Positions 1-24,898 of a stretch of 26,240 bases of DNA are shown here, one piece after another. Position 1 is the first letter of the stretch. Each line of letters starts with the position of its first letter. The notes under the pieces are model-generated. The model was given only the letters and a program-made list of their open reading frames with translations. It did not search any database and was not told the origin of the DNA. Source of the DNA: Methanothrix sp. (GTDB lineage: Archaea; Halobacteriota; Methanosarcinia; Methanotrichales; Methanotrichaceae); the NCBI GenBank assembly GCA_040770465.1, contig JAXGJB010000039.1, positions 1 through 26,240 on the forward strand, read 5' to 3'. A program made the position numbers and the translations under genes.

Positions 1-1
1 A

Positions 2-766
2 AGCCATCAAGAGCTCCTCGCCCTGGGAGACCTCGACCGTGCCATCCACATATTCCGGTCCGACCTCCTCCGGGAGGGGCTCACCATCAGCATGGCGACA
101 GAAACGCTGTGCCGCTCCCTGAAGGTCGAGGCGAAGGTCGTTCCCATGACTGATGATCCCGTCTCCACCATGATCTCGACGCCGGAGGGGGAGATGCATC
201 TTCAGGAGTTTTGGGTTGGACGGGGGGGCCGCCCCGACGTAACGGCCATCCGGTTCCGCGGGATCGAGGACGCCCTCCCGAGCCTCGGGTTTCTCGCGGC
301 CCTGGAGAGGGCGGCTGAGGCTGGCGAGCCCGTCCTGATAGGGCCGAGTAACCCCGTCTCCAGCATCGGGCCGATCCTGGCGCTGAGGGGAGTTCGGGAC
401 CTGTTGAAGAAGATTAGCAGGAAAGGACGAGAAAGAGGAAGAGAGGGGCGGAAAAGCCGGGTCGTCGCCATAAGCCCTCTCGTAGGCGGAAAGCCCGTCA
501 GCGGCCCTGCCGCCGCTTTCATGCGAGCCTGGGGGTTTCCGGTCAGCGACCAGGGTGTCGCCGACATCCTCGGGTGCGTCGACCTGATGGTGGTGAGCCC
601 AGAAAGCGACTATCGGGGGCCCGCTGTCCGGCTCGACACCGTCATGAAGGACGAGAGAGACAGCCTGAGGGTGGCGGGGGAGATCGTTGATATCCTGCAT
701 GGAGAGACGGAGACGGGAGCGGAAGCAGAGGCGGGGGAAGAGGAAGCTGAGACGGAGGCGGTCTGA
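2..766 (+). CDS. cofD: 2-phospho-L-lactate transferase (F420 biosynthesis), 5'-truncated by the window edge
   Basis: The frame is open from position 2 (SHQELLALGDLDRAIHIFRSDLL..., a CofD LGDxDRAxH motif). It continues through PMTDDPV, HLQEFWV, IGPSNPVSSIGPIL and VAISPLVGGKPVSGPA, all typical of CofD. Confidence 0.93.
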   Translation, partial: SHQELLALGDLDRAIHIFRSDLLREGLTISMATETLCRSLKVEAKVVPMTDDPVSTMISTPEGEMHLQEFWVGRGGRPDVTAIRFRGIEDALPSLGFLAALERAAEAGEPVLIGPSNPVSSIGPILALRGVRDLLKKISRKGRERGREGRKSRVVAISPLVGGKPVSGPAAAFMRAWGFPVSDQGVADILGCVDLMVVSPESDYRGPAVRLDTVMKDERDSLRVAGEIVDILHGETETGAEAEAGEEEAETEAV

Positions 767-1886: not shown

Positions 1887-3401
1887 GTGAATAAGGTGAG
1901 ACTGAAGCTAATTTACATTCTGTTGATGCTATCATCGCTATCAATGCCAGCCGTGGCGGATGAGGTGGAAACGGCAGTCGTATTCCCCGATCCGAACCTT
2001 GAGGATGCCATAAGAGACACGATCGATAAACCAGAAGGTCCCATCTATGCTGCAGATCTAGAACAGATCGATCGTCTTGGGGCGAATAAAAGTGATATCA
2101 GAGATCTTACCGGGCTGGAGTATTGTAATCACTTACAATATCTGGACCTAGGGTGGAATGAAATAACCGACGTATCTCCTCTAGCTGGCCTCACAAACCT
2201 GCAGGAACTGTACCTATGGGGGAATGAGATAACTGATGTCTCTTCTCTAACAGGCCTTATCAACCTGCAATATCTGTACCTAGGGTGGAACCCGATAACT
2301 GACGTATCTCCTATAGCAGGCCTCACTAACCTGCAAAAATTGGACATAAGTAGCACCGGGATAACCGACATCTCTCCTCTAGCTGGCCTCACAAACCTGC
2401 GATATCTGTACCTAAGACTGAACCGGATAACCGACATATCTCCGCTGGCTGGCCTCACCAACCTGCAAGAACTTTACCTATGGGTGAACCAGATAACCGA
2501 CGTATCTCCTCTAACGGGCCTCACTAACCTGCAAAATCTGTCCCTGTGGAGGAATCAGATAACCGATGTCTCTCCGCTGGCGGGCCTCACTAACCTGCAA
2601 GGACTGGACCTAGGGTGGAATGAGATAACCGACGTATCTCCGCTAGCGGGCCTCACTAACCTGCAAGAACTGTGTCTAAGGGAGAACCAGATAACCGATG
2701 TCTCGCCGTTGGCGGGCCTCACTAACCTGCAAAAACTGGACCTACCGTACAACCAGATAAACGACGTCTCCCCTCTAGTGGACCTCACCAACCTGCAAGA
2801 ACTGAACCTATGGGTGAACCAGATAACTGACGTCTCTCCTCTAACGGGCCTCACTAACCTGCGAAATCTGTCCCTATGGGGGAATGAGATAACCGACATC
2901 TCTCCTCTAGCGGTCCTCACCAACCTGCAATACCTGTCCCTAGGGTGGAATGAGATAACCGACGTATCTCCGCTGGCTGGCCTCACTAACCTGCAATATC
3001 TGTCCCTAGTTAGGAACCAGATAACCGACGTATCTCCTCTAGCGGACCTCACTAACCTGCAAAATCTGGACCTAAGTAGCAACCAGATAACCGACGTATC
3101 TCCGCTAGCGGACCTCACTAACCTGCAATACCTGTCCCTAGTGGGGAACCAGATAACCGACGTCTCTCCTCTGGCTGGCCTCACTAACCTGCAACATCTG
3201 GACCTAAGTGGCAACGAGATAACCGACGTCTCTCCTCTAGCAGGCCTCACTAACCTGCAAGAACTGTGGCTAAATAGCAACGAGATAACCGACGTTTCTT
3301 CTCTAGCGAGCCTCACTAACCTGCAAAAACTGAACCTAAATAACAACCAGATAACCGACGCCTCTCCTTTGGCGGACCTCACAGCTAAAATCACATATTA
3401 A
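1887..3401 (+). CDS. Secreted/surface internalin-like leucine-rich repeat protein
   Basis: Signal peptide (MNKVRLKLIYILLMLSSLSMPAVA), internalin-type N-cap (FPDPNLEDAIR...DLTGLEYC), then 19 near-perfect 22-aa LRRs of the form LQxLxLxxNxITDVSPLAGLTN. Confidence 0.92.
   Translation: MNKVRLKLIYILLMLSSLSMPAVADEVETAVVFPDPNLEDAIRDTIDKPEGPIYAADLEQIDRLGANKSDIRDLTGLEYCNHLQYLDLGWNEITDVSPLAGLTNLQELYLWGNEITDVSSLTGLINLQYLYLGWNPITDVSPIAGLTNLQKLDISSTGITDISPLAGLTNLRYLYLRLNRITDISPLAGLTNLQELYLWVNQITDVSPLTGLTNLQNLSLWRNQITDVSPLAGLTNLQGLDLGWNEITDVSPLAGLTNLQELCLRENQITDVSPLAGLTNLQKLDLPYNQINDVSPLVDLTNLQELNLWVNQITDVSPLTGLTNLRNLSLWGNEITDISPLAVLTNLQYLSLGWNEITDVSPLAGLTNLQYLSLVRNQITDVSPLADLTNLQNLDLSSNQITDVSPLADLTNLQYLSLVGNQITDVSPLAGLTNLQHLDLSGNEITDVSPLAGLTNLQELWLNSNEITDVSSLASLTNLQKLNLNNNQITDASPLADLTAKITY
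2133..3386 (+). repeat. Intragenic tandem array of 19 x 66-bp LRR units
   Basis: The unit ctgcaa...cta......aaccagataaccgacgtatctcctctagcgggcctcactaac recurs at a 66-bp period. Confidence 0.95.
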
Positions 3402-7884: not shown

Positions 7885-8308
7885 CACCACCTTCCCCATC
7901 GAGATCGTTTTTTGATCACGCTTCAATCCTAGGAACAAACAATATCCTTTAATGAAAACTGAGTATCTGAGATGACTATATAAATTTACCTCAAGTCTTA
8001 TTTCTATAAAATTCGTCTTAAGTTTATATGCCCTGAATATGCCTGATGGATTCTGCTTTGCGAATGAGATGACCCGAAACAACCGGCTGCAGAGAAAGAT
8101 ACCAGCATGAATTTGAAGAAGCGGCATTGTGAAGGATTAGGATGCTTTTCGAAATTGATCCGACAGCCTTCAGCCAGCTAGACTTCGTTTCTGACGACAT
8201 CACCCATAAGGCATTATAGCCATTGAGGAGAATATGTTAGCCTAAAACTAAACCAAACCTAACCTGAACCCATTCTTGATGCGATAGGGCCCAGCTGGAG
8301 GTGAGGGG

Positions 8309-11300
8309 ATGATTCGAGTTCTTATGGTGGACGACGATCCCGCGGTCCTGGAGATAACCAAGATATTCCTCGAAAGGTCCGGAGAGATCGGGGTCGATGC
8401 CGTCGAATCGGCCGAAGAGGCGACGAAGAGGCTTGATGACGGGCACTACGACGTCATAGTCTCCGATTACGTGATGCCCGAGATGGACGGCATATCATTT
8501 CTTAAATTCGTCCGAAGCCGGGACCCGGAGGTCCCCTTCATCCTCTTCACTGGAAAAGGGCGGGAGGAGGTGGTGATCGAGGCCCTCAACAACGGAGCCG
8601 ACTACTACCTCCAGAAGGACGCAAACCCCAGGGTCCTCTACGCAGAGCTGACCCACCAGATCCGCCAGGCGGCAGAACGGCAGAAGACGAAGAGAGCCGT
8701 CCGCGAAAGCGAGGAGAAGTACAGGGCCCTCTTTGAGAACATGAACGAGGGCTTCGTCCTCTACGAGTTCGTCCGCGACCCCGACGGCGTCCCGACCGAT
8801 TACGTCGTCAAGGACGCAAACCCCCTGATCGGCCTGATAGCCGACGTCGAGCCGGAGGAGGCTATGGGAAAGAGGTCGACCGAGATATTTCGGTCGGAGA
8901 CGCCCCCATTTCTGGAGATCTACTCGAAGGTGGACGAGACGGGATATTCCGCAAAGTTTGAGACGTTCTTCCCCCTGACCGGCCGCTATTTCAGAATCTC
9001 CGCCTTTTCCATCGGGAGAGGACGGTTCGCGACCATTTTCTCCGACATCACCGAGCAGAGGAGGATGGACGAGGAGCTCTGCCGGGCTCACAAGCAGCTT
9101 TTTGACATCATAGACTTTCTTCCGGACCCGACCTTCGTCATCGACCAGAACAGGAAGGTTATCGCGTGGAACCGGGCGATCGAGGAGATGACGGGCGTTC
9201 CCAAAGAAGATATCATCGGAAGCGGCGCCCGCTCCTACGCCGAGCCCTTCTACGGATTCGAGAGGCCCATCTTGATCGATTCGATCTTCTCAGAGGACGC
9301 AAAGGTGGAGATGGAGTACGATTACCTTCGCCGGGAGGGAGATGCGATATATGCCGAGGTCTTCGTCCCTCACCTCTACGGGGGGAAGGGGGCCTACATC
9401 TCGACGATAGCATCACCCCTATTCGACGAGTTTGGAAATATAGCAGGAGCCATCGAATCGATCCGGGACGTCACCGAGAGGAAGCGGGCCGAGCTGGACC
9501 TCCGCGAGACCCGGGACTATCTGGACAGTCTCCTCCATTACGCCAACGCCCCCATCGCCGTCTGGGGGCCCAACATGAAGATCATCCGGTTCAACAGGGC
9601 CTTTGAACGGCTGACCGGCTACGCAGCCGATGAGGTCGTCGGCCAGGAGGCATCGATCCTCCTGCCCGATGAGGTCCGAGAAGAGGCCCTGGCAAAGATC
9701 TACTTCACCCTGGAGGGAGAGTGCTGGGAGTCGGTGGAGATCCCCGTCCGCTGCAAGAACGGTGGGGTCAGGATCGTCCTCTGGAACTCGGCGAACATCC
9801 ACTCCGAGAAGGACGGAACTCTTGTTGCAACGATCATCCAGGGCCAGGACATAACCGAGCGAAAGCGGGCGGAGGAAAAGCTCATCGAATCCCACAAGCG
9901 ATTGCTGGACATCATCGATTTTCTTCCGGACCCGACCTTCGTCATCGACCAGGACAGGAAGGTGATCGCCTGGAACCGGGCGATCGAGGAGATGACGGGG
10001 GTGTCCGGGAAGGAGATGATCGGAAAGGGCGATTACGCTTACGGTGAGGTCTTCTACGGCACGAAAAGGCCGGTCCTCATCGACCTGATCTTCTCGAGGG
10101 ACGAAGAGCTTGAGGCCCTCTACAGCCACGTCAAGAGGGAGGGGGATACCCTCTTCGCCGAGTCCTTCGTATCTCCCCCCAGAGGGAGAAAAGGGTTTTA
10201 CGTCTGGGGAACCGCCTCTCCCCTCTTCGATAAGGAGGACAAGGTCGTGGGGGCGATCGAGTCGATCCGCGACGTATCCGAGATCAAGGAGACGGAGATG
10301 GCGCTTCAGGAGAACGAGGAGAGGATGAAGCTCGTCATCGAGGGTGCGAACCTCGGGATCTGGGACAGGAACGTTGAGACCGGAGAGGTGGTCCGAAATC
10401 GGCAGCTCGTCGAGATCTTCGGATACCCTGAAGACGAGCTGGAAGGTCGGATCGAGGAGAGGGAGAGGATGATACACCCCGATGATTTTAAAAAGGTAAT
10501 CTCCGCTCTCAACGACCACTTCGATGGGAGGACTCCTCACTACGAGATCGACTATCGGCTGAAGCGGAAGGACGGCCGGTGGATATGGGTCCACGATCGC
10601 GGCGAGGTGATGGAGAGAGACGCGGCCGGCCGCCCTCTGAGAATGGCGGGGATCACCCAGGAGATCACAGAGATCCGGCAGAACCAGGAGGCTCTACGGG
10701 AGGCGAACAGGAAGCTGAACCTCCTCAGCAGCGTCACCCGCCACGACATCCAAAACCAGATCGCTGGGCTATCGGGATACGCCCACCTCCTCAGCGAGAT
10801 CCTCCCCGAGGACCGGGCGATGCGAAAGTACATCGACCGGGTCATGGAGCTGACGGAGACTATCAGAAAACAGGTAGCCTTCACCCGGGACTATCAGGAC
10901 ATGGGGGTGGTTGCTCCCGAATGGCAGTCGGTCGAAGAGGTGGTCCGGCGGGCTGCAGAGTCTGCTCCCGTCGAGATCGGAAAAAAGCAGATCAAGCTCA
11001 ACATCACCACAGGCCCTCTGGAGATCTTCGCAGATCCGATGCTGGAGAAGGTCTTCTTCAACCTCCTGGAGAACGCCGCGAGACACGGTGGCGGCGTCAC
11101 CGAGATCCGGGTCTCCTTCCTCGAACGAAGGGATGATGGCGGCGGGGTCATCGTCGTCGAAGACGATGGCGTGGGGATACCGGCGGATATGAAGGCCCGG
11201 ATCTTCGATCAGGCCTTCGGGAGGCACACCGGCTACGGCCTCTTCCTCAGCCGGGAGATCCTGGGGATCACCGGTATGACCATCGCCGAGACCGGCGAGG

Positions 11301-11368
11301 AAGGGCGGGGGGCGAGGTTCGAGATATCGGTTCCGAGGGAGAATTATAGGTGGAGTCAGATAATCTGA
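8309..11368 (+). CDS. Hybrid sensor kinase: receiver domain, 5 PAS domains, HisKA, HATPase
   Basis: REC (VLMVDDD, VSDYVMPEMDG, FTGKG, YLQK), five PAS/PAC blocks ending DITE/DVTE-like, H-box TRHDIQNQ, N-box NLLENAARHG, G1 EDDGVGIP, G2 GYGL. GGAGGTGA RBS upstream. Confidence 0.95.
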   Translation: MIRVLMVDDDPAVLEITKIFLERSGEIGVDAVESAEEATKRLDDGHYDVIVSDYVMPEMDGISFLKFVRSRDPEVPFILFTGKGREEVVIEALNNGADYYLQKDANPRVLYAELTHQIRQAAERQKTKRAVRESEEKYRALFENMNEGFVLYEFVRDPDGVPTDYVVKDANPLIGLIADVEPEEAMGKRSTEIFRSETPPFLEIYSKVDETGYSAKFETFFPLTGRYFRISAFSIGRGRFATIFSDITEQRRMDEELCRAHKQLFDIIDFLPDPTFVIDQNRKVIAWNRAIEEMTGVPKEDIIGSGARSYAEPFYGFERPILIDSIFSEDAKVEMEYDYLRREGDAIYAEVFVPHLYGGKGAYISTIASPLFDEFGNIAGAIESIRDVTERKRAELDLRETRDYLDSLLHYANAPIAVWGPNMKIIRFNRAFERLTGYAADEVVGQEASILLPDEVREEALAKIYFTLEGECWESVEIPVRCKNGGVRIVLWNSANIHSEKDGTLVATIIQGQDITERKRAEEKLIESHKRLLDIIDFLPDPTFVIDQDRKVIAWNRAIEEMTGVSGKEMIGKGDYAYGEVFYGTKRPVLIDLIFSRDEELEALYSHVKREGDTLFAESFVSPPRGRKGFYVWGTASPLFDKEDKVVGAIESIRDVSEIKETEMALQENEERMKLVIEGANLGIWDRNVETGEVVRNRQLVEIFGYPEDELEGRIEERERMIHPDDFKKVISALNDHFDGRTPHYEIDYRLKRKDGRWIWVHDRGEVMERDAAGRPLRMAGITQEITEIRQNQEALREANRKLNLLSSVTRHDIQNQIAGLSGYAHLLSEILPEDRAMRKYIDRVMELTETIRKQVAFTRDYQDMGVVAPEWQSVEEVVRRAAESAPVEIGKKQIKLNITTGPLEIFADPMLEKVFFNLLENAARHGGGVTEIRVSFLERRDDGGGVIVVEDDGVGIPADMKARIFDQAFGRHTGYGLFLSREILGITGMTIAETGEEGRGARFEISVPRENYRWSQII

Positions 11369-11463
11369 TCTTGGCTTGTTCTTCCGGCTTCAGGGATAAT
11401 CCTGATCTATATGCTCGAAAAAACAGCATCTTGGGACAAATTGGAGATGCTAACACGTACAAT

Positions 11464-12891
11464 TCATGCTAGCTCTTTCCAGCACAATGGGTCCTCTGCA
11501 TACAGATCACCTGTATGCGCTAAGGCTGCAGCCCTGCACCCGCCATAGCACATGATCCCAAGATATTCACAATCGTTACAGTTGCCTTTAAGACTTCCTC
11601 GTGTAATATTTCTGAAGATATCAAATGTAGGTGAATTATCCCATATTTCCTTTAAATCGCTTTCTCTCACATTACCCGCTACAAGCTCACGTAGAAATGG
11701 GCATGGTGCAATTTTTCCATCAGGGGTTATATAAAAGCTTGAGGATCCAGCAGTGCAACCTATCTTTGATGAATTGTCAAGTTTCATCGATTCGAGGACC
11801 TTTTTGTCCAAGCCCTTAACAAGCCATGGATAATCCGTTTCACTGTTGATAATTATACTATTGCCTACTTCCTTCTTTTTTTCGATCATCATGTAGGTAA
11901 AATCCTTGGTATCCTGGCGTGTTAAGACGTATTTGTCTATATTGCTTTTTCCACGACCCGCAGGCATAAAAAGCGTTGTCTTGAACGAGGATATTCCCAG
12001 ATCGATAGCCATATCAATAATTCGAGGGATCTCGGACATATTCTGTTTTGTGACTGTAGAGCTAATTGAAACATTGTAGTTTGCATCTCTTAGAAGCTTT
12101 ATTGCATTGATAGCGCGTTCATAAGTTCCTTTCCTGCCTCGGAAGCTATCATGGGTTTCCCCGATCCCGTCGATGCTCACCTGAACGTTAAATATATTGC
12201 TATCTTCCAAACGAGTCAGCACTTTTTCTGTTATTAGAGCGCCATTTGTTAATAGATCAACTGAAAACTTTTTTTCTGAAGCATAATCAATAATATCAAA
12301 TATATCTGGTCTCATCAGAGGTTCGCCACCAGATAGATTTATATTAAAAACTTTCATAGCTTCAAGGCGATCTAATAGCTTCATCGCTTCCTGTGTGGTT
12401 AATTCATTTGGTAATGGCTTTCCTGCACTTGATAGGCAATGCTCACACCGAAGATTGCATGCACCTGTTATCTCCCAGATCACAAACAGAGGTGCAGATA
12501 ATATATCTTTTGATTTAATATTATTGTATTCTAAAAATCCAAAATCTATCGGCTTTTTGAGCTTTTCCTCATGCAAACGAATGGCGTATGTGTCTTTAAA
12601 GGAATTGATCGTTTTATCAACGAGCATATCTATATATTCTTCGGAATGATTAAGTTTGCCGCTAACGACCTTCTTAATCTCACCAACTGTGTAAGTTCCG
12701 TCACACATCTCCGCAATCCCAAACCTGACGTGATCCAATCTCGTTTCAGGAGGAAGGTACGGATTGAAGATAAATCCACCGAAGTGTTCCTCACGCAAGA
12801 CCATAAATGAATGCATAATGGGTATATTGGAATCATCCAGTTTTTGGGAATTGTTTGCTGATTGTTCACATTGTGCACAGGCTCTATCCAT
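11464..12891 (-). CDS. Radical SAM/SPASM-domain peptide or protein maturase with N-terminal PqqD/RRE-like domain
   Basis: WEITGACNLRCEHC (CxxxCxxC), SGGEPL, LTNG, QVSIDG..ETHD.FRG. SPASM motif C-X12-G-X4-C ... CNDC-X6-C-X3-C ... DPLC. N-terminal LREEHFGGFIFNP...AEMCDGTYTVGEI resembles PqqD/RRE. AGGTGA RBS. Confidence 0.93.
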   Translation of the reverse strand: MDRACAQCEQSANNSQKLDDSNIPIMHSFMVLREEHFGGFIFNPYLPPETRLDHVRFGIAEMCDGTYTVGEIKKVVSGKLNHSEEYIDMLVDKTINSFKDTYAIRLHEEKLKKPIDFGFLEYNNIKSKDILSAPLFVIWEITGACNLRCEHCLSSAGKPLPNELTTQEAMKLLDRLEAMKVFNINLSGGEPLMRPDIFDIIDYASEKKFSVDLLTNGALITEKVLTRLEDSNIFNVQVSIDGIGETHDSFRGRKGTYERAINAIKLLRDANYNVSISSTVTKQNMSEIPRIIDMAIDLGISSFKTTLFMPAGRGKSNIDKYVLTRQDTKDFTYMMIEKKKEVGNSIIINSETDYPWLVKGLDKKVLESMKLDNSSKIGCTAGSSSFYITPDGKIAPCPFLRELVAGNVRESDLKEIWDNSPTFDIFRNITRGSLKGNCNDCEYLGIMCYGGCRAAALAHTGDLYAEDPLCWKELA

Positions 12892-12964
12892 ATTCTCACC
12901 TCGCCCTATTAGTTCGTAATAGCTTCAGAAAAATGAAAATGAGATCTCCTGTCAGCATTGTCCG

Positions 12965-13624
12965 TTATTTTTTCATTTGGTCGACCATCTTCTTCAATGC
13001 TCTGGATAATTCAGGCCTTTGAATCACATTTTGGGTTATTCGCTCCTCTAGGACATCTAGATCGAAATCTATTCCTATACCTGCCGCGCAATATTCTTCT
13101 CCTTTTATGAGTGTCACGCAACCAGCTTTCAATCCAAAGAGTATGCAATCACTTTTGCACAGTATATATGGGTCCCCGAGCACTAAGTCAGACCCTTTGC
13201 ATACGTTAGATGTGCAAGAATCCCCATATACGCGATAGATTGCGCACGTAAAGTAAGAGCGCAGTTTTTTCGGGTCGTGGATAATCCCCCTACCACCAAC
13301 GTAATTTGTCGCGGCATCCATTAGCGTTTCCAGGGCGATACCTGCAAGCTTTTCTTTGATGATCGCGATTTCTTTATCAACGACGTCAGCATCAAATTCC
13401 GCGATGGCTTTTGACATTATGCTTGCCTTATCTTTGCCTTCCGGGATTGAGTCGTATACGCCTTTGATAGCCTTTTTTACTCTCGCTACATCATCAGCTT
13501 CTTCGGCTTTATCTGCTTCAATCATCATTTCACTAAGCGCCGCTGATAGCAGTACGGGATCAACTTTCCCCATTACAATCTTGGCTTTCTCGATATCGGA
13601 TATTACCACGTCTTCCTCTGTCAT
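12965..13624 (-). CDS. Hypothetical 219-aa protein with Cys-rich core; putative substrate/precursor of the adjacent radical SAM enzyme
   Basis: GGAGGGG RBS and upstream TATA box. All 7 Cys lie in residues 127-179, flanked by Cys-free charged helical regions. It lies 73 bp upstream of the rSAM gene on the same strand. The CDS is well supported; the function is inferred. Confidence 0.8.
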   Translation of the reverse strand: MTEEDVVISDIEKAKIVMGKVDPVLLSAALSEMMIEADKAEEADDVARVKKAIKGVYDSIPEGKDKASIMSKAIAEFDADVVDKEIAIIKEKLAGIALETLMDAATNYVGGRGIIHDPKKLRSYFTCAIYRVYGDSCTSNVCKGSDLVLGDPYILCKSDCILFGLKAGCVTLIKGEEYCAAGIGIDFDLDVLEERITQNVIQRPELSRALKKMVDQMKK

Positions 13625-13676
13625 CTTCTTACCCCTCCGTCTTTATTCAATTATAACAATTATTCATGCAATTGTA

Positions 13677-13692
13677 CTATATATAGTTTTTG
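13677..13692 (-). promoter_or_regulatory. Archaeal BRE + TATA promoter of the precursor-rSAM operon
   Basis: The minus strand reads caaaaac-TATATATA-g, about 55 nt upstream of ATG 13624. Confidence 0.6.
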
Positions 13693-14047
13693 AGAGTTTA
13701 TTAGAAAGATCTTCTACATTCACTTTTCATCTTCGTTATAGGTAGAAGGCTACTAGTGTTGCAAGTCTCTAGAATATCCTCGAATCAATAGTGCCGTTTG
13801 GTTCTTATTTGCCTGTCCTAGAGATCGACCAAAGAAATCATATCTTTATATATTTTTTTAAAAAATCATCTTGAACTTGATCTCGACATATAGATGAATA
13901 AAGCCATAGTCAGTGATTATTCAGTGGTTCACATTTACAACATTAAATCAATAAAAAGGACTATTCTTTATAATTATTAAAAATATTTTTATTAAAAGAG
14001 GGTGGGAAAGGAGCATTACAGTGAATAAATATATGTGAAATAATTAC

Positions 14048-14662
14048 TCACACCTCGCACTCCGCCAGGATCTCCGCCGCGAGCTTCCTCATCCTCTCCT
14101 CCCCAACGAATTCCCCCACAAGCCGGAGGGCGAACTCCATCGCCGTCCCCGCTGCCTTGCTGGTGACGAGCTTTCCCGAGACCACCACCCGATCGTCGAC
14201 GTACTGATCGTCGGTCAGGTCTTTCCGCCCGGCGGGGTGGATCGTCGCACGCCTGCCCCCCACGACCCCGGCCTTCACCAGGACCGAGGGCGCGCCGCAG
14301 ATGGCGGCAACGTACTTTCCCAGCCCATCCATCCGGCGGACGAGGTCGAGGACCCGCTCGTCATTGCCGAGGGTAACGAAGCCCGGATAGCCTCCGGGGA
14401 GGACGACGGCGTCGAAATCCTCGGGGTCGATCTCGTCGATGACAGCGTCGGGGACGATCCTGATCCCGTGGGACCCCTGGACGGTCCCGACCTCATCCTC
14501 GTCGGCCGTTCCTCCCTCCCCGGCCGCTCTATCTCTATTTCTCTCGCCGAGGCTTGCGGTCACCACCTCAACCTCGGCCCGTCTCAGGATGTCGACTATG
14601 GTGACAAACTCGATCTCTTCAAAGCCCTCTGCCAGGGGAACGACGACCTTCACGACCTTCAC
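14048..14662 (-). CDS. DJ-1/PfpI (ThiJ/YajL-like) family protein
   Basis: VPLAEGFEEIE, VDILRRA, DAVVLPGG, AAICGAP (nucleophilic Cys), VTSKAAGTAMEFAL. GTG start at 14662 follows an AAGGAGG RBS. Confidence 0.92.
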   Translation of the reverse strand: MKVVKVVVPLAEGFEEIEFVTIVDILRRAEVEVVTASLGERNRDRAAGEGGTADEDEVGTVQGSHGIRIVPDAVIDEIDPEDFDAVVLPGGYPGFVTLGNDERVLDLVRRMDGLGKYVAAICGAPSVLVKAGVVGGRRATIHPAGRKDLTDDQYVDDRVVVSGKLVTSKAAGTAMEFALRLVGEFVGEERMRKLAAEILAECEV

Positions 14663-14714
14663 AAGCTTCAGCCTCCTTTTTATCCTCAACGTTTATCCTT
14701 CATAGTTCTTAGCT

Positions 14715-15572
14715 TCACAGTTTCGTGAGGTCAAAGACCCACCGGCTGACGGACGGGGCGACGTTCCCGCACCGCCGATTAAAATCGACCGCCAGTCCCC
14801 GCCCCTCGAACTCTTTTATCAGCCCCCCGATCTGGCTGTGCCGCTTGAAGGTGTAAAAGGTGACCGCGCCGCCCGGCCTGACCAGGGGGCTTATGGAGTC
14901 CAGGATCTCGTCCCTCCCGTATGGCGTCGGGACAATGGCCCGATCGAACTTCTGCTCCGGACGCCTCGACTTCCCCTCGCTCCAGCCCTGAGATCTCCCC
15001 GCCATGGTCCGGCATAAGGCGAAGGCGTCGCAGTTCACGATCTCGACTTTGCCGTCGACCCCGTTCCGCCTCGCGTTCTCCGCCAGCCACCTGCAAGCCT
15101 CGGAGCTGATCTCCAGGGCCAGGACCCTCGCCCCCGCCGCGGCCAACGGTATGGCGAAGGGTCCGACCCCGGCGAATGGGACGATCACTCGCTCTCCGGG
15201 AACCGCCTTCGATGCGACCCTCATCCTCTCGGAGCCGAGGCGGGGGTTGAAGAAGACCCTGGCCAGGTCGAGGCGGTAAACAAAGCCGAACTCCCGGTGG
15301 CAGGTGACGGTCCCGCCGCCCGCCAGAACCTCGAACTCAGCGACCCTCCGCTCGCCCTCCAGCTTTGAGACCTTGTTCAGGACGGTCTTCACGTTCCTGT
15401 GACGGGCGATTATCGCCTCTCCGATCGGTCTCTTCAGCCGATCCAGCTCCTGAGGAATCGAGACGACGGCCACGTCACCGACGAGGGAGAAGCGGCTCGG
15501 AGCCAGGTCCAGCATCTCGCCGGGTACGATGCCGGAGAGCTCGTCACGAAGGCCCGTCCTCCTCCGGCTCAT
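14715..15572 (-). CDS. Class I SAM-dependent methyltransferase, Trm5/Tyw2 (Met-10+) like
   Basis: FSLVGDVAV, GERRV, HREFGFVYRLD...VFFNPRLGSERMR, PFAGVGPFAI, ENARRNGV. Likely start is ATG 15572. Confidence 0.85.
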   Translation of the reverse strand: MSRRRTGLRDELSGIVPGEMLDLAPSRFSLVGDVAVVSIPQELDRLKRPIGEAIIARHRNVKTVLNKVSKLEGERRVAEFEVLAGGGTVTCHREFGFVYRLDLARVFFNPRLGSERMRVASKAVPGERVIVPFAGVGPFAIPLAAAGARVLALEISSEACRWLAENARRNGVDGKVEIVNCDAFALCRTMAGRSQGWSEGKSRRPEQKFDRAIVPTPYGRDEILDSISPLVRPGGAVTFYTFKRHSQIGGLIKEFEGRGLAVDFNRRCGNVAPSVSRWVFDLTKL

Positions 15573-15896
15573 GGAGATCTCCCGACCTCCGAAAGACCGG
15601 CAAAAATTGTCATGCGTTTTATCCCCAGGATCTTCATCCAGGACCGTCATCCAAACAACCCTTGAAACTGTTTAACTTTAATCTGGCGATCGAAGAGGTG
15701 AGGATCAGGAAGGTGACCGATCCGCCCCTCAGAACTCCACCATCCGGAACCCTTTGCTCGCACCGTTTCTGCTGAAGGGGTCGAATTAAGTAGTTTGAAC
15801 GCCAAAGAATGGCAAGAGTTAGGGAGATGATGGCGGGATGAAAACGCAGGTGGGCGCGCGGTCCTCGCCGCCGAGAAAGGCGGAGGTGGATCGGCT

Positions 15897-17585
15897 TTGG
15901 GTGATTTGGTGGAAAATATGAAGGGAGCTCTGAGAGGAGAGACGATCGCCTACTTCTCGATGGAGATCGGCCTGGTGGAGGAGATCCCCACCTATGCGGG
16001 GGGGCTTGGAACCCTCGCCGGGGACACGGTCCGCTCCGGCGCCGATCTGAGGCTTCCCTTAGTCGCCGTAACCCTTGCGAACAGGAAGGGGAGCTTCCGG
16101 CAGGAGCTTGACCCGATGGGAAGGCAGATCGAGCATCCGGCGGAGTGGGACCCCTCAGAGCTCTGCGATCTTTTGCCGGAGAGGGCGCGGGTCAGAATCG
16201 GGGGGAGGGACGTTGACATCGCTGCCTGGCAGTACATTCTTAGTAGCCCCACCGGAGGCAGCGTGCCCGTCCTCTTCCTCGACACCAACCTTGAGGAGAA
16301 CGACCCTGAGGATAGGGCGATCACCGACGTTCTTTATGGTGGGGATGAACGGTACCGTCTGAAGCAGGAGATCGTCCTCGGAATCGGGGGGGTGAGGGTC
16401 CTCGACGCTCTGGGGTTTCGGATCAGAAAGTACCACATGAACGAGGGGCACTCAAGCCTTCTCGCCCTGGAGCTTCTAGATCGGGCCGGTGGTGATCCCG
16501 AAGCGGTCCAGAAGAGGTGCGTCTTCACCACCCACACCCCGGTGGAGGCGGGTCACGACAAGTTCTCCTACGATCTCGCCTGCGAATTGATCGAGGACGG
16601 CGACAAGATCGAGATGCTGAAGAGGTTCGGAGGCGGCGATCGGCTGAACATGACCCTCTTCGCCCTCAACCTTTCAAACTACATAAACGGCGTTGCAAAA
16701 AAGCACCGGGACGTCTCCAGCGCCATGTTTCCAGGCTACGTCATCCACTCGGTGACAAACGGCGTCCACTCCTACGCCTGGACCTGCCCCTCGTTTCGAG
16801 AGCTCTACGACCGCTACCTTCCGGGCTGGGCGAACGAGCCGGAGCTTCTGGTTAGAGTCGACATCATCCCCGACGACCTGATGGTGGAGGCCCACGCCGC
16901 CGCCAAAAGGGAGCTGATCGATGAGGTCAACAGATCGACGGCGGCTGATATGGACCCCGAGGTTCTGACTCTGGGGTTTGCGAGACGATCTACGGAGTAC
17001 AAGAGGCCTACCCTCATCTTCTCAGACCTCGACAGGCTCCGGAGGATCAGCTCAAGGGGCGAGATCCAGATCGTCATGGCGGGGAAGGCCCATCCGAAAG
17101 ACCTCCAGGGAAAGAGGCTGATCGAGGAGATCTTCGGTTTCGCGAAAAACCTCAAAGGCGATATCGAGGTGGCTTACCTTGAGAACTACGACATGAGCCT
17201 CGCGGCGAAGATGGTCTCTGGGGTCGACGTCTGGCTGAACACGCCGCTGCGGCCCCGGGAGGCCTCGGGGACCAGCGGGATGAAGGCGGCCCACAACGGG
17301 GTCATAAACTTCAGCGTCCTCGATGGCTGGTGGATCGAGGGGTGGATCGAGGGGGTGACGGGCTGGTCGATCGGCCCCGAGCCCGGCGAGGATCTGACCC
17401 CTGAAGAGGCGAGGCGGAGGGACACCGACGACCTCTACAGCAAGCTCGAGTACATCATCGTCCCCACCTTCTATAATCGGAAGGACGACTGGGTGAGGAT
17501 GATGAACAACTCGATAGGGATGCTCGCCTACTACTTCAACAGCCACAGGATGATGAGAAGGTACGTCACCGAGGCTTACCTCTGA
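15897..17585 (+). CDS. glgP: Alpha-glucan (glycogen/maltodextrin) phosphorylase
   Basis: AYFSMEIG, YAGGLG.LAGD, HMNEGH, FTTHTPV.AGHD, TNGVH, FARR..YKR, AGKAHP and the PLP-lysine motif EASGTSGMKA. TTG start follows a GGAGGTG RBS. Confidence 0.95.
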   Translation: MGDLVENMKGALRGETIAYFSMEIGLVEEIPTYAGGLGTLAGDTVRSGADLRLPLVAVTLANRKGSFRQELDPMGRQIEHPAEWDPSELCDLLPERARVRIGGRDVDIAAWQYILSSPTGGSVPVLFLDTNLEENDPEDRAITDVLYGGDERYRLKQEIVLGIGGVRVLDALGFRIRKYHMNEGHSSLLALELLDRAGGDPEAVQKRCVFTTHTPVEAGHDKFSYDLACELIEDGDKIEMLKRFGGGDRLNMTLFALNLSNYINGVAKKHRDVSSAMFPGYVIHSVTNGVHSYAWTCPSFRELYDRYLPGWANEPELLVRVDIIPDDLMVEAHAAAKRELIDEVNRSTAADMDPEVLTLGFARRSTEYKRPTLIFSDLDRLRRISSRGEIQIVMAGKAHPKDLQGKRLIEEIFGFAKNLKGDIEVAYLENYDMSLAAKMVSGVDVWLNTPLRPREASGTSGMKAAHNGVINFSVLDGWWIEGWIEGVTGWSIGPEPGEDLTPEEARRRDTDDLYSKLEYIIVPTFYNRKDDWVRMMNNSIGMLAYYFNSHRMMRRYVTEAYL

Positions 17586-22199: not shown

Positions 22200-23222
22200 T
22201 TGAGGACGATCTGGTGGAGCTCTGAGAGCCGGGCCATCGGGATGATCGACCAGACCCTCCTCCCCGAGAGGCTGGAGACGATCGAGATCGAGTCGGTCGA
22301 GGGGCTATGCGAGGCGATCCTCGCGCTCCGGGTCCGGGGGGCCCCGGCTCTTGGCGCAGCCGGGGCCTACGGCGTCGCCCTGGCGGCGGCGCAGTCGGCG
22401 GCGACCGACCCGGCGGCCCTCCTCCAAGAAGTCCAGAAGGCGGCCGAAATCATCCGGGCGGCGAGGCCCACCGCCGTCAACCTCTCCTGGGGCGTCGACC
22501 GGGTGATGGGAGCCCTGAACAAAATCAAAGAATCTGCCGACGCCGACGAGATCAGGGCGGCGGCCCTGGCGGAGGCGGAATCGATCGCCGAGGAGGACGT
22601 GGCCATCAACCGGGCCCTCGGCGACATCGGCGCGTCGCTCCTCGCTGACGGGGACGTGGTCCTCACCCACTGCAACGCCGGGAGGCTCGCCTGCGTCGGC
22701 TGGGGGACGGCCCTGGGCGTCATTCGATCGGCTTGGGCCAACGGCAAGAGGATCAGCGTCTACTCCTGTGAGACGAGGCCGCTTTTCCAGGGGTCGAGGC
22801 TGACGGCCTGGGAGCTGTCTGAAGACAACATTCCCGTCACCCTCATCTGCGACAACATGGCCGGGATGGCCATGCGCCAGGGCAAAATAGACAAGGTGAT
22901 CGTCGGCGCCGACCGGATCACAAAGGACGCCGTCTTCAACAAGATCGGGACCTACTCCCACGCCGTCCTGGCGAAGGCTCACGGAATCCCATTTTACGTC
23001 GCCGCTCCCATCTCCACCTTCGACCTCGATCACTCAGAAAAGGACGTCGAGATCGAGGAGAGGTACCCGGACGAGATCAGGCGTTTAGGAAACAAACAGC
23101 TCGCCCCGGCTGAGGTCAGAGTCTACAACCCGGCCTTCGACGCCACGCCCCTGGACCTGGTGACAGCGATCATCACCGAGCGGGGGATCTATCGGCCGCC
23201 GGAGATGCCGAATCTGGGATAA
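22200..23222 (+). CDS. mtnA: S-methyl-5-thioribose-1-phosphate isomerase
   Basis: TTG start at 22200 (MRTIWW), IDQTLLP, VRGAPALG, RPTAVNL.W, LTHCNAG.LA, ETRPLFQGSRLT.WEL, GADRI, NKIGTY, NPAFDATP. Confidence 0.93.
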   Translation: MRTIWWSSESRAIGMIDQTLLPERLETIEIESVEGLCEAILALRVRGAPALGAAGAYGVALAAAQSAATDPAALLQEVQKAAEIIRAARPTAVNLSWGVDRVMGALNKIKESADADEIRAAALAEAESIAEEDVAINRALGDIGASLLADGDVVLTHCNAGRLACVGWGTALGVIRSAWANGKRISVYSCETRPLFQGSRLTAWELSEDNIPVTLICDNMAGMAMRQGKIDKVIVGADRITKDAVFNKIGTYSHAVLAKAHGIPFYVAAPISTFDLDHSEKDVEIEERYPDEIRRLGNKQLAPAEVRVYNPAFDATPLDLVTAIITERGIYRPPEMPNLG

Positions 23223-23223
23223 G

Positions 23224-23236
23224 GCGAGTTTTTAAA
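23224..23236 (+). promoter_or_regulatory. Putative TATA box (gcgagTTTTTAAA) for the first pentapeptide gene, probably leaderless
   Basis: Ends 27 nt before ATG 23263. The same sequence with the same spacing precedes the paralog. Confidence 0.65.
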
Positions 23237-23262
23237 TTCTTTGCCATTGAATGCTAACACCG

Positions 23263-24843
23263 ATGGTAGCGGATAGCAGCTCAGACCAGCGCCAAGTGAT
23301 ACAGGCGAGCGAGATCCTGGCCAAGATCGAGCGGGGCGAGCCTGTCGAGTACGACTACAAAGTAATCGAGGGCGACTTGGATCTCAGCGGCCTCTATCTT
23401 CCAACGGAACAAGTAGGCAGAACAAAACAAGAGTTGCGGCAAGGATTGTCTGAAGAGCTGAAAGTGATAGCCTCAGAGATTACAATCATCAATTCAGAAA
23501 TTCGGGGTAAGGTAAACTTCAGTAATGCACACTTTCAGAAGACTGTCAGCTTTTGGGGAGATAAGAGCTTTAAAAGAGTTGAGTTTACCAATGATGTAGA
23601 CTTAAGAGGGGCACAATTTGATGGAAATGTCAATTTTGCAGGAGTTATCTTCAATTATGCCAACTTCATGTGGACAGAGTTCACAGGGGAAACCGACTTC
23701 GGTGGAACCAGGTTCAAAGGAGATGTCTACTTCTGGAAATCAGTGTTCAGCAGAGGGGCTAATTTCCTGCAAGCTAAATTCGGAAGGAAGGCCCGCTTTG
23801 GAGGAGCTCAGTTCAATGGGACGGCCAACTTCATGTTCGCTGAGTTTACTGAGTATGCGGGTTTTGGGGAAGTTCAGTTCAGCGGAAAGGCCAACTTCCA
23901 ACAAGCTACGTTTGGAGAAAAAGTATGGTTCTTAGGAGTTGTGTTCCGAGAAGATACGGACTTCATTGAAACTAAATTCAAAGGGGATTCCTGCTTTATA
24001 ACATCAACCTTCTGCAGAGATAACAAATTCATGGATGCCCAATTCGGTGGAAAGACGGACTTTAGAGAGGCTACTTTCCACAAAGAAACAGACTTCTCAG
24101 GTGCAAAATTTGACGCACAGATAAGTTTCATTAGATTAAAGTTTAATATTTTATATATTAATTGGGCTTCGATTAAAGATAATCTTGTTTATGATGGCCC
24201 TGCTTACTTAGCATTAATAAAAAACTTTAAAGTAATTGAGCAATTTGGAGACGCCGATGATTGCTACTATGCTTATCGAAAAGCGAGCCAGAATCAGAAG
24301 GAATGGTACAACGAAAAGAATAGATTAATTGATTTTCTTACCCGCTGTTACAGCTGGATAGCCTCTAACATTAAGCGAATCTCTGAATACCTTAGTTGGA
24401 TAAACAACTACCCTCCATTCACCTGGATTCATCGGTTTAACTGGTCCAAGCTTTTCGATTGGATCGGCTTCGTTTCCTGTGGATATGGTGTCAAGATACA
24501 GCCCATAATTCTGTGGGTCTTCGGCTCAGTCTTCGGCTTCTCGCTCCTCTACAATCTCCTGCCCCAAAGCTACGGTGGAATCGCAGAATCCGGACCCTCG
24601 ACCGTCACTATGGAGGCCATGAACAACAGCACGCTTCTTTTCACCTTCGGCTCGGGCGACGGCGCCGCCTCCCCCTCGTGGGGCGAGTGCCTCTACTTCA
24701 GCTTCACGGCGCTGACGGGCGGGACCCCCGACGGGCTGCATCCGGTGGGGCTCTGCAAGTACGCGGTGATGGTGGAGGGCGTCCTCGGGTATCTCTTCCT
24801 CGCGCTCTTCGTGGTGGTGCTGGCGAGGAAGATCATACGGTGA
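23263..24843 (+). CDS. Pentapeptide-repeat protein with C-terminal two-TM ion-channel-like domain
   Basis: N-terminal QASEILAKIERGEPVEYD, ~11-aa xxxFxxAxFxG repeats, ADDCYYAYRK helix, SCGYG, TM1, LYFSFTALTGG pore-like helix, TM2 (EGVLGYLFLALFVVVLARKIIR). Start is 23251 or 23263. Confidence 0.88.
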   Translation: MVADSSSDQRQVIQASEILAKIERGEPVEYDYKVIEGDLDLSGLYLPTEQVGRTKQELRQGLSEELKVIASEITIINSEIRGKVNFSNAHFQKTVSFWGDKSFKRVEFTNDVDLRGAQFDGNVNFAGVIFNYANFMWTEFTGETDFGGTRFKGDVYFWKSVFSRGANFLQAKFGRKARFGGAQFNGTANFMFAEFTEYAGFGEVQFSGKANFQQATFGEKVWFLGVVFREDTDFIETKFKGDSCFITSTFCRDNKFMDAQFGGKTDFREATFHKETDFSGAKFDAQISFIRLKFNILYINWASIKDNLVYDGPAYLALIKNFKVIEQFGDADDCYYAYRKASQNQKEWYNEKNRLIDFLTRCYSWIASNIKRISEYLSWINNYPPFTWIHRFNWSKLFDWIGFVSCGYGVKIQPIILWVFGSVFGFSLLYNLLPQSYGGIAESGPSTVTMEAMNNSTLLFTFGSGDGAASPSWGECLYFSFTALTGGTPDGLHPVGLCKYAVMVEGVLGYLFLALFVVVLARKIIR

Positions 24844-24859
24844 GGTGGGGCCGTCGAGA

Positions 24860-24872
24860 GCGAGTTTTTAAA
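24860..24872 (+). promoter_or_regulatory. Duplicated putative TATA box for the second pentapeptide gene
   Basis: gcgagTTTTTAAA ends 27 nt before ATG 24899, matching 23224-23236. Confidence 0.65.
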
Positions 24873-24898
24873 TTCCTCGCCATTGAATGGTAATAGCG

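Follow-up and report, generated by a model that had tools for sequence, protein, structure and literature searches.

A candidate two-gene RiPP-like cassette of Methanothrix: a radical SAM/SPASM enzyme and a hypervariable cysteine-core protein

A stretch of 26,240 nucleotides from the archaeon Methanothrix sp. (GenBank assembly GCA_040770465.1, contig JAXGJB010000039.1, positions 1 to 26,240; the window in what follows) carries on its minus strand two adjacent genes, the first coding for a 219-aa protein with a cysteine-bearing core and the second for a 475-aa radical S-adenosylmethionine (SAM) enzyme with a SPASM domain. The system is real, and its family is unannotated and architecturally distinctive. 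Every refuting condition named in the original prediction for which a check was run turned out in its favour. Because the pair is strictly syntenic, the smaller protein shows a leader/core/tail anatomy, the enzyme bears a recognition element (RRE) of the type found with peptides that are made on the ribosome and modified after translation (RiPPs) and no other gene is present in the island in which both lie, we consider it very probable that the two proteins are substrate and enzyme. The fuller proposal, that the island enzyme, guided by its RRE, staples the cysteines of the precursor by radical formation of thioethers, is favoured with somewhat lower confidence and is probably correct.

The precursor protein and its pairing with the enzyme

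The precursor gene (12965..13624, minus strand) encodes a protein of 219 aa, 23.9 kDa and pI 4.9, and is followed on the same strand by the maturase gene (11464..12891, 475 aa). Both are located in a low-GC accessory island (11351..14047, 2.7 kb, 39.2% GC) bordered by the 3' ends of two host genes that converge on it, with GC fractions of 0.392 in the island vs. 0.591 and 0.614 in its flanks. The original prediction had described a self-contained two-gene unit without protease or exporter, and both statements agree with what was found: an open reading frame (ORF) check of the 2.7-kb, 39% GC island detected no further plausible gene of at least 20 aa, including in the 423-nt AT-rich non-coding stretch upstream of the precursor gene, and no protease or exporter gene was found in it.

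Three regions can be distinguished in the precursor. The leader domain (residues 1-108; 13301..13624, minus strand) is conserved, acidic (pI 4.4) and free of Cys; the hypervariable core (residues 109-186; 13067..13300, minus strand) contains all seven Cys; and the C-terminal tail (residues 187-219; 12968..13066, minus strand), with the pattern Q..RPELSRA.KKM, is basic (pI 8.4) and again Cys-free. Mean pairwise identity, calculated over the 153 pairs of 18 full-length members (P0015 and P0020 excluded), was 0.74 for the leader, 0.21 for the core and 0.66 for the tail, and in the family alignment the core varies in length and contains repeats. The conserved positions of the leader include K20, D22, P23, L25, L26 and the IPEGKDK motif (alignment A1), with D22 and E85 invariant and P23, L25 and A29 at least 90% conserved in the wider family. 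In the window protein, the Cys are found at residues 127, 137, 142, 156, 160, 169 and 179, within a 53-residue stretch. Thus, the Cys core claimed earlier stood as far as the confinement of Cys to this region is concerned, whereas the count and positions had to be corrected to seven Cys between residues 127 and 179.

A word-indexed search retrieved 20 proteins including the window precursor, none with an informative name and all originating from data of JGI, ENA or Logan, and a hidden Markov model scan of 1.84 billion representatives gave 41 proteins at E ≤ 0.001. One of them, the 2009-aa repeat protein P0060, matched leader positions 13-42 weakly and 20 times over, and was dropped as a chance motif match. 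The precursor had no match in Pfam, NCBIfam or PADLOC, and an ESM Atlas search with it was not informative (best score 0.77). The absence of any enzyme family match, together with the hypervariable middle, agrees with its earlier description as an orphan ORF. No Cys precedes residue 109 in 24 of the 25 close members, the exception being P0037 with a Cys at position 56, and in the 23 distant members the Cys begin after the leader, except for one in a fused N-terminal domain of P0056. The distant members contain repeated Cys units such as CICPEGGC, CxRYxVG and CPPxI. Cys-Cys spacings in the family peak at 3 and at 6-8 residues, Tyr is enriched at position +3 after core Cys and Ile, Leu or Val at +4 and +5, and the overall Cys content ranges from 1.4% to 6.5%. 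Extra N-terminal domains were found in distant members, transthyretin-like in P0056 and P0063 and DUF4332/helix-hairpin-helix in P0064, an indication that the leader behaves as a folded module and not as a disposable peptide.

The distribution of the precursor gene is narrow. It is single-copy in the host genome (G000; 2.54 Mb, 94.85% complete), which was the only one of 401 sampled genomes of the phylum to contain the family (profiles A1 and A3, same sample). It was detected in neither of the two same-genus genomes searched, and no match to A1 was found in viral contigs. As the McrA encoded in the host genome scores above the curated cut-off (942.8 vs. 767.75 bits), the host is a methanogen.

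When the window was compared by blastn with the metagenome locus L004, positions 8000-13076 aligned at 96.2% identity and 13230-17170 at 97.6%, whereas nothing aligned for 13077-13229 (minus strand, core residues ~132-183), in place of which L004 has 174 unrelated nucleotides. Therefore, given that the flanks align at 96-98% over 9 kb, near-identical strains differ by replacement of the core alone.

A metagenome scan located homologues of the precursor in 13 loci, and in all 13 the radical SAM gene, identified by tblastn, lies directly downstream and on the same strand, the enzymes being 78-94% identical and the precursor homologues 40-71%, so that the conserved adjacency anticipated by the original prediction was borne out in this set. 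The enzyme gene is complete in six loci (L004, L010, L012, L013, L014 and L015) and cut by the end of the contig or locus in seven (L003, L005, L006, L007, L008, L009 and L011). As L003/L004 and L012/L013 are near-duplicates, the count corresponds to about 11 distinct loci. No third conserved gene, protease or transporter was seen among them. Synteny and anatomy support the earlier proposal that the adjacent, co-transcribed gene encodes the substrate, a relation that, like the chemistry, is predicted here from sequence.

The sole match among GTDB species genomes was a Methanothrix metagenome-assembled genome (MAG; locus L002), in which a 119-aa ORF ends after the leader, and the precursor gene of this genome appears to be disrupted. 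At L002 3880-5216, a 314-aa ORF that looks by eye like an insertion sequence transposase stands after the leader ORF, and the contig ends beyond it.

The radical SAM/SPASM enzyme and its N-terminal domain

The radical SAM core of the enzyme (12010..12474, minus strand; Pfam Radical_SAM at residues 140-294, E 1.1e-27) contains the C145-x3-C149-x2-C152 motif, and the SPASM domain (11482..11757, minus strand; Pfam SPASM at residues 379-442, E 4.6e-14) contributes seven further Cys (C379, C397, C438, C441, C448, C452 and C470). All ten cluster Cys are invariant in 104 homologues (alignment A5), in full agreement with the CxxxCxxC and complete SPASM motifs first read from the sequence. These homologues derive from a whole-protein search in which 1628 of 8000 candidates scored reached E ≤ 1e-20; the best 120 of the 1628, whose identities fall to about 32-36% at the lowest, have coverage of at least 93% in nearly all cases and comprise, among others, MAG proteins with the labels Hodarchaeota, Thorarchaeota and Methanotrichaceae. 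A5 consists of 104 of these 120, after removal of rows below 93% coverage. The AlphaFold2 model obtained with A5 reached a mean pLDDT (predicted score in the local distance difference test) of 92.4 and a predicted template modelling score (pTM) of 0.90, and replaced an earlier run with the 16-sequence alignment A2 that was too poor for use (pLDDT 57). PADLOC matches to viperin cores (93 bits, residues 135-331) were generic and were not taken as membership.

No NCBIfam model reached its cut-off, the order of scores being AhbD, TIGR04053, NirJ2, NirJ and MftC. AhbD (TIGR04545), whose cut-off is 500, gave 240.5/241.4 bits, and NirJ2 and NirJ gave 223.1 and 219.8 bits against cut-offs of 500-515. 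Since these haem enzymes head the scores, and some homologues are labelled "AdoMet-dependent heme synthase" by their sources, the enzyme could be read as an AhbD/NirJ-type enzyme of haem or cofactor biosynthesis with an unrelated neighbour. However, the scores are far below the cut-offs, and the AhbD model is matched better, and over its full length, by a 328-aa protein encoded on contig 6 of the host genome (420 bits), the island gene coming third with 241.4 bits. Moreover, the AhbD model aligns to the island enzyme from residue 137 only, so that the first ~135 residues, which contain the RRE, are an extra region without AhbD counterpart, and the low-GC island that contains the gene varies between strains and is lacking in the same-genus genomes. 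A haem enzyme of this kind is thus hardly tenable, and the enzyme is set apart from AhbD and NirJ, in line with the original prediction.

The models of named peptide maturases were not reached either. MftC (TIGR03962) gave 209.4 bits vs. 265, and no MftA- or MftB-like gene was found in the island; AlbA (NF012164) gave 103 bits vs. 850, PapB (NF047865) 111.4 vs. 340, StsB (NF045574) 161.6 vs. 625 and SkfB (TIGR04403) 127.9 vs. 300. The CrpC family (TIGR04463, rSAM_vs_C_rich) aligned over model positions 88-272 only, and with 61.4 bits vs. a cut-off of 525 the island enzyme is not a member of it.

The N-terminal domain (residues ~23-107; 12571..12825, minus strand) was assigned as a PqqD-like RRE, a domain built of a three-stranded sheet and three helices, from the structure model and the homologues. 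In the model, strands at residues 23-26, 31-35, 38-42, 50-52 and 104-107 accompany helices at 54-62, 69-79 and 84-100, and R33, E35, F37, G38, N43 and G65 are among the N-domain positions with full or at least 90% conservation in A5. Pfam PqqD (PF05402) was matched by 11 of the 104 full-length homologues, with a best E value of 6.9e-5. The A5 profile aligned with SuiB (5v1q) in a single stretch, 12-450 to 22-448 (E 3.4e-35), which takes in the N-terminal region of SuiB, sharing with it an R-x-E-x-F-G-G motif. By Foldseek, the top match of the model was precursor-bound SuiB (5v1t; E 2.2e-21, TMq 0.68), followed by SkfB, the sactipeptide enzyme 5why/5wgg and PqqE. Superposition with VIA-align gave Z 31.5 and a root-mean-square deviation (rmsd) of 4.2 over 362 aligned residues for SkfB (model 28..465), and Z 28.9 and rmsd 4.2 over 414 for SuiB (model 23..472 on chain 1..439). 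As 414 of the 439 SuiB residues were aligned, the superposition includes the N-terminal domain of SuiB, which we take to be its RRE. An ESM-feature search with residues 25-128 placed three PqqD clusters first (score 0.88, a lead only), and a search with the first ~135 residues retrieved 16 proteins. When residues 1-135 were co-folded with the full precursor, the ipSAE was 0.00 in both runs, in which controls were absent and the fold of the partner was uncertain, so that the value speaks neither for nor against binding. We take the RRE as present but divergent: the RRE-like N-terminus of the original prediction stands by the homologues and the structure model, and not by Pfam detection in the window sequence.

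Proposed chemistry and comparison with known systems

The two genes would form a horizontally mobile RiPP-like cassette, in which a single promoter drives first the precursor gene and, behind it, that of the maturase. The RRE of the maturase (~23-107) would dock onto a conserved element of the precursor, for which the KIDPxLL motif of the leader is the best candidate, being the most conserved motif in the wider family (D22, P23 and L25), with the tail as an alternative. SAM would then be cleaved by the radical SAM cluster bound by C145, C149 and C152, and the resulting 5'-deoxyadenosyl radical would abstract hydrogen at a residue that is separated from a core Cys by a few positions. With the help of two auxiliary clusters in the SPASM domain, a thioether from the Cys sulphur to carbon, of the sactionine or ranthionine type, would be closed, and this could be repeated at up to seven sites with a loss of 2 Da per link. 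The product is probably a stapled protein of ~24 kDa, or one trimmed by host enzymes, because the pair travels without protease or exporter. The earlier suggestion of a cross-linked intracellular protein would be consistent with the same absence, the cross-link being proposed by analogy.

A methanogen system that has been studied experimentally offers the nearest means of comparison for such a substrate. CrpC of Methanococcus voltae, the enzyme of family TIGR04463, combines an RRE, a radical SAM and a SPASM domain with three [4Fe-4S] clusters, and equips CrpA, a protein of 28.8 kDa, with thioethers that are probably of the ranthionine type (PMC13692751, Dieter et al., ACS Bio Med Chem Au, Sept 2026). 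According to that article, CrpA has a 47-residue N-terminal region common to CrpB and a 17-residue Cys motif repeated 10 times, removal of the RRE or of the N-terminal domain reduced modification without abolishing it, and CrpB, a paralogue poor in Cys, may have a helper role (PMC13692751). The likenesses to the island are a methanogen host, an enzyme with RRE, radical SAM and seven-Cys SPASM domains, and a whole-protein substrate (28.8 kDa in Crp, a predicted one of 23.9 kDa here) that has a conserved recognition region at its N terminus and Cys motifs in repeated form. A paralogue with the same leader, found here in some loci only, and the lack of an identified protease or exporter in the cluster are also common to both. 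In contrast to Crp, where the leader has 47 aa, that of the island has 108, the core, with 3-6.5% Cys, is hypervariable and followed by a conserved C-terminal tail, the two genes form a mobile island, and the Cys content of 1.4-6.5% in the family falls mostly below the thresholds used in the published screen of RefSeq proteomes (a minimum of 10% Cys, or of 5% for proteins above 250 aa; PMC13692751). As its Cys content is low and its close members come from JGI, ENA and Logan data, the precursor family would mostly be missed by that screen.

The comparison also bears on whether the 219-aa protein could be a partner of the enzyme, for instance its chaperone or scaffold, a protein of immunity or regulation or one that binds metal or Fe-S clusters, with the radical SAM enzyme acting on another substrate. 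A tandem second leader-bearing gene was found in L009 and L010, and the second copy in L010 (P0020, 252 aa), with seven Cys all within residues 112-144, is reminiscent of CrpB. Its lower number of Cys, the possible helper role of the Cys-poor CrpB, the length of 219 aa, far above the usual precursor size, and the absence of processing genes alongside would all fit a partner. On the other hand, a conserved binding or metal site clashes with a core of 21% identity and variable length that is replaced at the strain level, there is no other gene in the island and the pair is strictly syntenic. A partner role is therefore improbable, and the enzyme-substrate relation is maintained in what follows.

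Given such a pair, the enzyme most likely turns the core Cys into thioethers, because Cys is the only conserved feature of the core and the studied methanogen analogue makes thioethers. A different radical modification of the same substrate, be it C-C cross-linking of the streptide or triceptide type, epimerization or Cys oxidation, has to be weighed against it. In overall architecture, fold and the presence of a precursor next door, the island enzyme resembles two RRE-containing maturases of solved structure, SuiB (5v1q/s/t) and the sactipeptide thioether enzyme 5wgg/5why, presumably CteB, and SkfB (6efn) is also a close relative in fold; it differs from all three in sequence, with 19-27% identity, and no named NCBIfam maturase model was reached. 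The substrates of SuiB and of CteB-type enzymes are short peptides with short leaders, and SuiB forms a C-C rather than a C-S link. That the best full-length structural relative is a C-C cross-linker is the main reason to retain this possibility; the enrichment of Tyr at +3 and of Ile, Leu or Val at +4 and +5 after core Cys, the scores of the sacti- and ranthipeptide models (AlbA, PapB, StsB and SkfB) below their cut-offs and the superposition of an anaerobic sulfatase maturase on the catalytic part of the model, residues 133-475 (Z 27.1, rmsd 2.9, 310 aligned) point in the same direction. Against this, Cys is the sole residue type kept across the cores and is excluded from leader and tail, the Crp analogue forms thioethers, and SkfB and 5wgg/5why are equally close relatives. 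We regard another chemistry as rather unlikely, and thioether stapling remains the preferred reading.

Several results weigh against thioether stapling as proposed. The fold does not fix the chemistry, as the closest full-length match, SuiB, makes a C-C link, and the best NCBIfam scores, all below cut-off, belong to haem enzymes. The core Cys content, 3.2% in the window precursor, is low for a sacti- or ranthipeptide, and neither a leader protease nor an exporter is present. The adjacency count covers close relatives only, and the four nearest other relatives of the enzyme in the phylum adjoin proteins without the window leader. As for the RRE, the N-domain of the window enzyme itself had no Pfam match even at E ≤ 10, and a profile of the N-domain only (A4) retrieved no RRE from PDB sequences, its best matches, a cyclodipeptide synthase (E 0.07) and a LOB factor (E 1.7), being insignificant.

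More distant analogies concern the substrate. QhpD is a radical SAM/SPASM enzyme that forms several Cys thioethers within a protein subunit, QhpC of quinohemoprotein amine dehydrogenase (QHNDH), and not in a small exported peptide; QhpC is a conserved bacterial enzyme subunit and is not hypervariable. Likened by description, that pair shares with the island a protein subunit as substrate and differs from it in the lack of hypervariability. Precursors of the proteusin (NHLP) and Nif11 types have a long conserved, probably structured leader before a variable core. The long leader domain ahead of a variable core is thus common to them and to the window precursor, whereas their modifying enzymes are others, they lack a conserved C-terminal tail and no Pfam or NCBIfam similarity to them was found. 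QHNDH is cited as a protein with RiPP-like thioethers in PMC13692751, and predicted ranthipeptide and sactipeptide clusters in archaea were described in a 2025 survey of archaeal RiPPs (PMC12144867), whose passages on archaeal clusters describe no family of the kind found in the window. No description of the precursor family was found in the literature searched, in which the supplements of PMC13692751 were not included. The earlier claim of an undescribed family holds in that the family has no Pfam or NCBIfam model and lies outside TIGR04463, but not for the kind of system, which was published in September 2026 (PMC13692751).

Genomic slot, expression and wider clade

The island occupies a variable slot. 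In sequencing run X3, one DNA contig has no more than 87 letters separating 11350 from 14047, which corresponds to an empty site, and another joins 11350 to 14048 with a different insert of 2702 letters. Loose contig ends at the same joints in X4 and X15 suggest further alleles. In G303, a genome of the same genus, the corresponding slot, flanked by the same pair of convergent genes, is taken by another island of ~2.7 kb with 34-43% GC (L021; G303:C1:1024800-1028600), with ORFs at 572-2494 and 2475-3122 for proteins of 640 and 215 aa; the C-terminal nitrilase domain of the 640-aa protein matches PADLOC DRT-associated nitrilases (E 4.3e-21). The slot thus has the look of a hot spot at which cassettes of accessory or defence type gather. 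Terminal repeats, direct or inverted, were not found at the island ends, nor was any Rfam family in 11200-14200.

Regarding expression, the original prediction had assigned the unit its own TATA box and ribosome binding sites. By sequence inspection, a TATA-like box, CTATATATAG, is located at 13677..13686 (minus strand), ~57 nt 5' of the precursor ATG. An (A/T)TATATAG block is common to five of eight aligned upstream regions (window, L004, L005, L006 and L014), L010 has TTTTATAA at the TATA position, and the identical pair L012/L013 is without a TATA-like block. A purine-rich Shine-Dalgarno (SD)-like stretch precedes the ATG by 6-13 nt in all eight loci, being GGAGGGG at 13632..13638 (minus strand) in the window. 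For the radical SAM gene, an SD-like GAGGTGA was recognized by inspection at 12896..12902 (minus strand), inside the 73-nt spacer. A run of six T at 11418..11423 (minus strand), 41 nt past the stop codon of the radical SAM gene, is a possible archaeal terminator, oligo-T termination being known in archaea. The signals assigned earlier are thus present, and the TATA-like box is a putative promoter, as the T run is a putative terminator.

Contigs from the RNA libraries of two metatranscriptome runs, which belong to a study from which the window DNA may itself derive, cover parts of the unit, the island parts without cover being left uninterpreted. One of 644 nt covers 12983-13626 without mismatches, one of 153 nt covers 12852-13004 and bridges the spacer between both genes, and others cover 11834-12189 and 13283-13608. 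These contigs give weak support for transcription of both genes, since carry-over of DNA was not excluded and they provide neither transcript ends nor strand.

Elsewhere in the window, the flanking 1019-aa ORF, similar to a response regulator/sensor kinase, contains an internal duplication (9044-9497 and 9848-10301, ~68% DNA identity) that, judged by eye from the translation, corresponds to repeated sensor modules. Other stretches of lower GC, at 2001-3000 and 23001-26000 (0.46-0.50 vs. ~0.6), may be other accessory DNA.

The enzyme belongs to a wider clade in the phylum. With the A5 profile, 44 of the 401 genomes gave a match at E ≤ 1e-90, five of them (G000, G362, G263, G061 and G031) at 485-713 bits and with the N-domain included; the remaining matches scored at most 327 bits, most being AhbD-like and without N-domain (from profile position ~114-123). 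In genus g11, 9 of 14 sampled genomes gave matches that start at profile position ~22-36. None of the wider-clade enzymes examined reached an NCBIfam cut-off.

In G362 and G263 (L023 2-2904 and L024 1495-4400; 583-610 bits), a protein of 322 or 318 aa upstream of the radical SAM gene has an unannotated N-terminal part and C-terminal Cys repeats (CRxGLPDSMIE...), without significant profile similarity to the precursor family. A further upstream protein in both loci resembles by eye the transthyretin-like domain of P0056 and P0063. A by-eye impression of a C-terminal tail shared by the precursor family and P0180, the Cys-repeat protein beside the nearest relative of the enzyme, was not supported, with an hhalign probability of 0.2. 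The relatives in G061 and G031 (486-502 bits) adjoin a papain-family peptidase gene (L025 615-1490 and L026 2871-3746; Pfam Peptidase_C1, E 6e-16), whose product is a candidate leader peptidase; the window island is without a counterpart of it. In the sole locus of genus g11 examined (L032 155-2736, genome G170), a 410-aa thermolysin-like (HEWTH) protein ends in ~10 Cys-Pro repeats of the ICPPxP type and a helix-hairpin-helix-like tail, and a 450-aa RRE-like radical SAM/SPASM enzyme is encoded directly downstream. Therefore, Cys-repeat regions beside RRE-radical SAM/SPASM enzymes recur in the phylum with different carrier domains.

As to the role of the product, the replacement of the core between near-identical strains and the defence-type domain in the island that occupies the slot elsewhere point to a strain-specific function related to conflict or recognition rather than to housekeeping. 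A broader picture is offered as speculation and is, taken as a whole, unlikely to be right: a mobile, strain-specific system of variable stapled proteins, in which a constant leader/tail scaffold would carry a hypervariable Cys-repeat knot locked by the radical SAM enzyme, would serve self/non-self recognition, archaeocin competition or antiviral defence and would be exchanged as one cassette replaces another at a hot spot that in a sister species houses the island with the defence-type nitrilase domain, with the maturase clade, reaching into Asgard archaea, marking a widespread protein-scale diversification of RiPP-like products.

Radical SAM stapling of whole archaeal proteins has so far a single experimental example, from 2026. 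The precursor and enzyme described here add another lineage, unrelated to the first and more transparent in its genetic logic: only two genes are involved, the leader is very long and free of Cys, the tail is conserved, and strains that are otherwise near-identical have swapped cores. The cassette offers a compact test bed for the recognition of a protein-sized substrate by an RRE, for the tolerance of the enzyme towards core sequences and for the purpose of such products in the methanogen communities of anaerobic digesters. As the thresholds of the published screen would miss most members of this family, similar systems may be under-counted.

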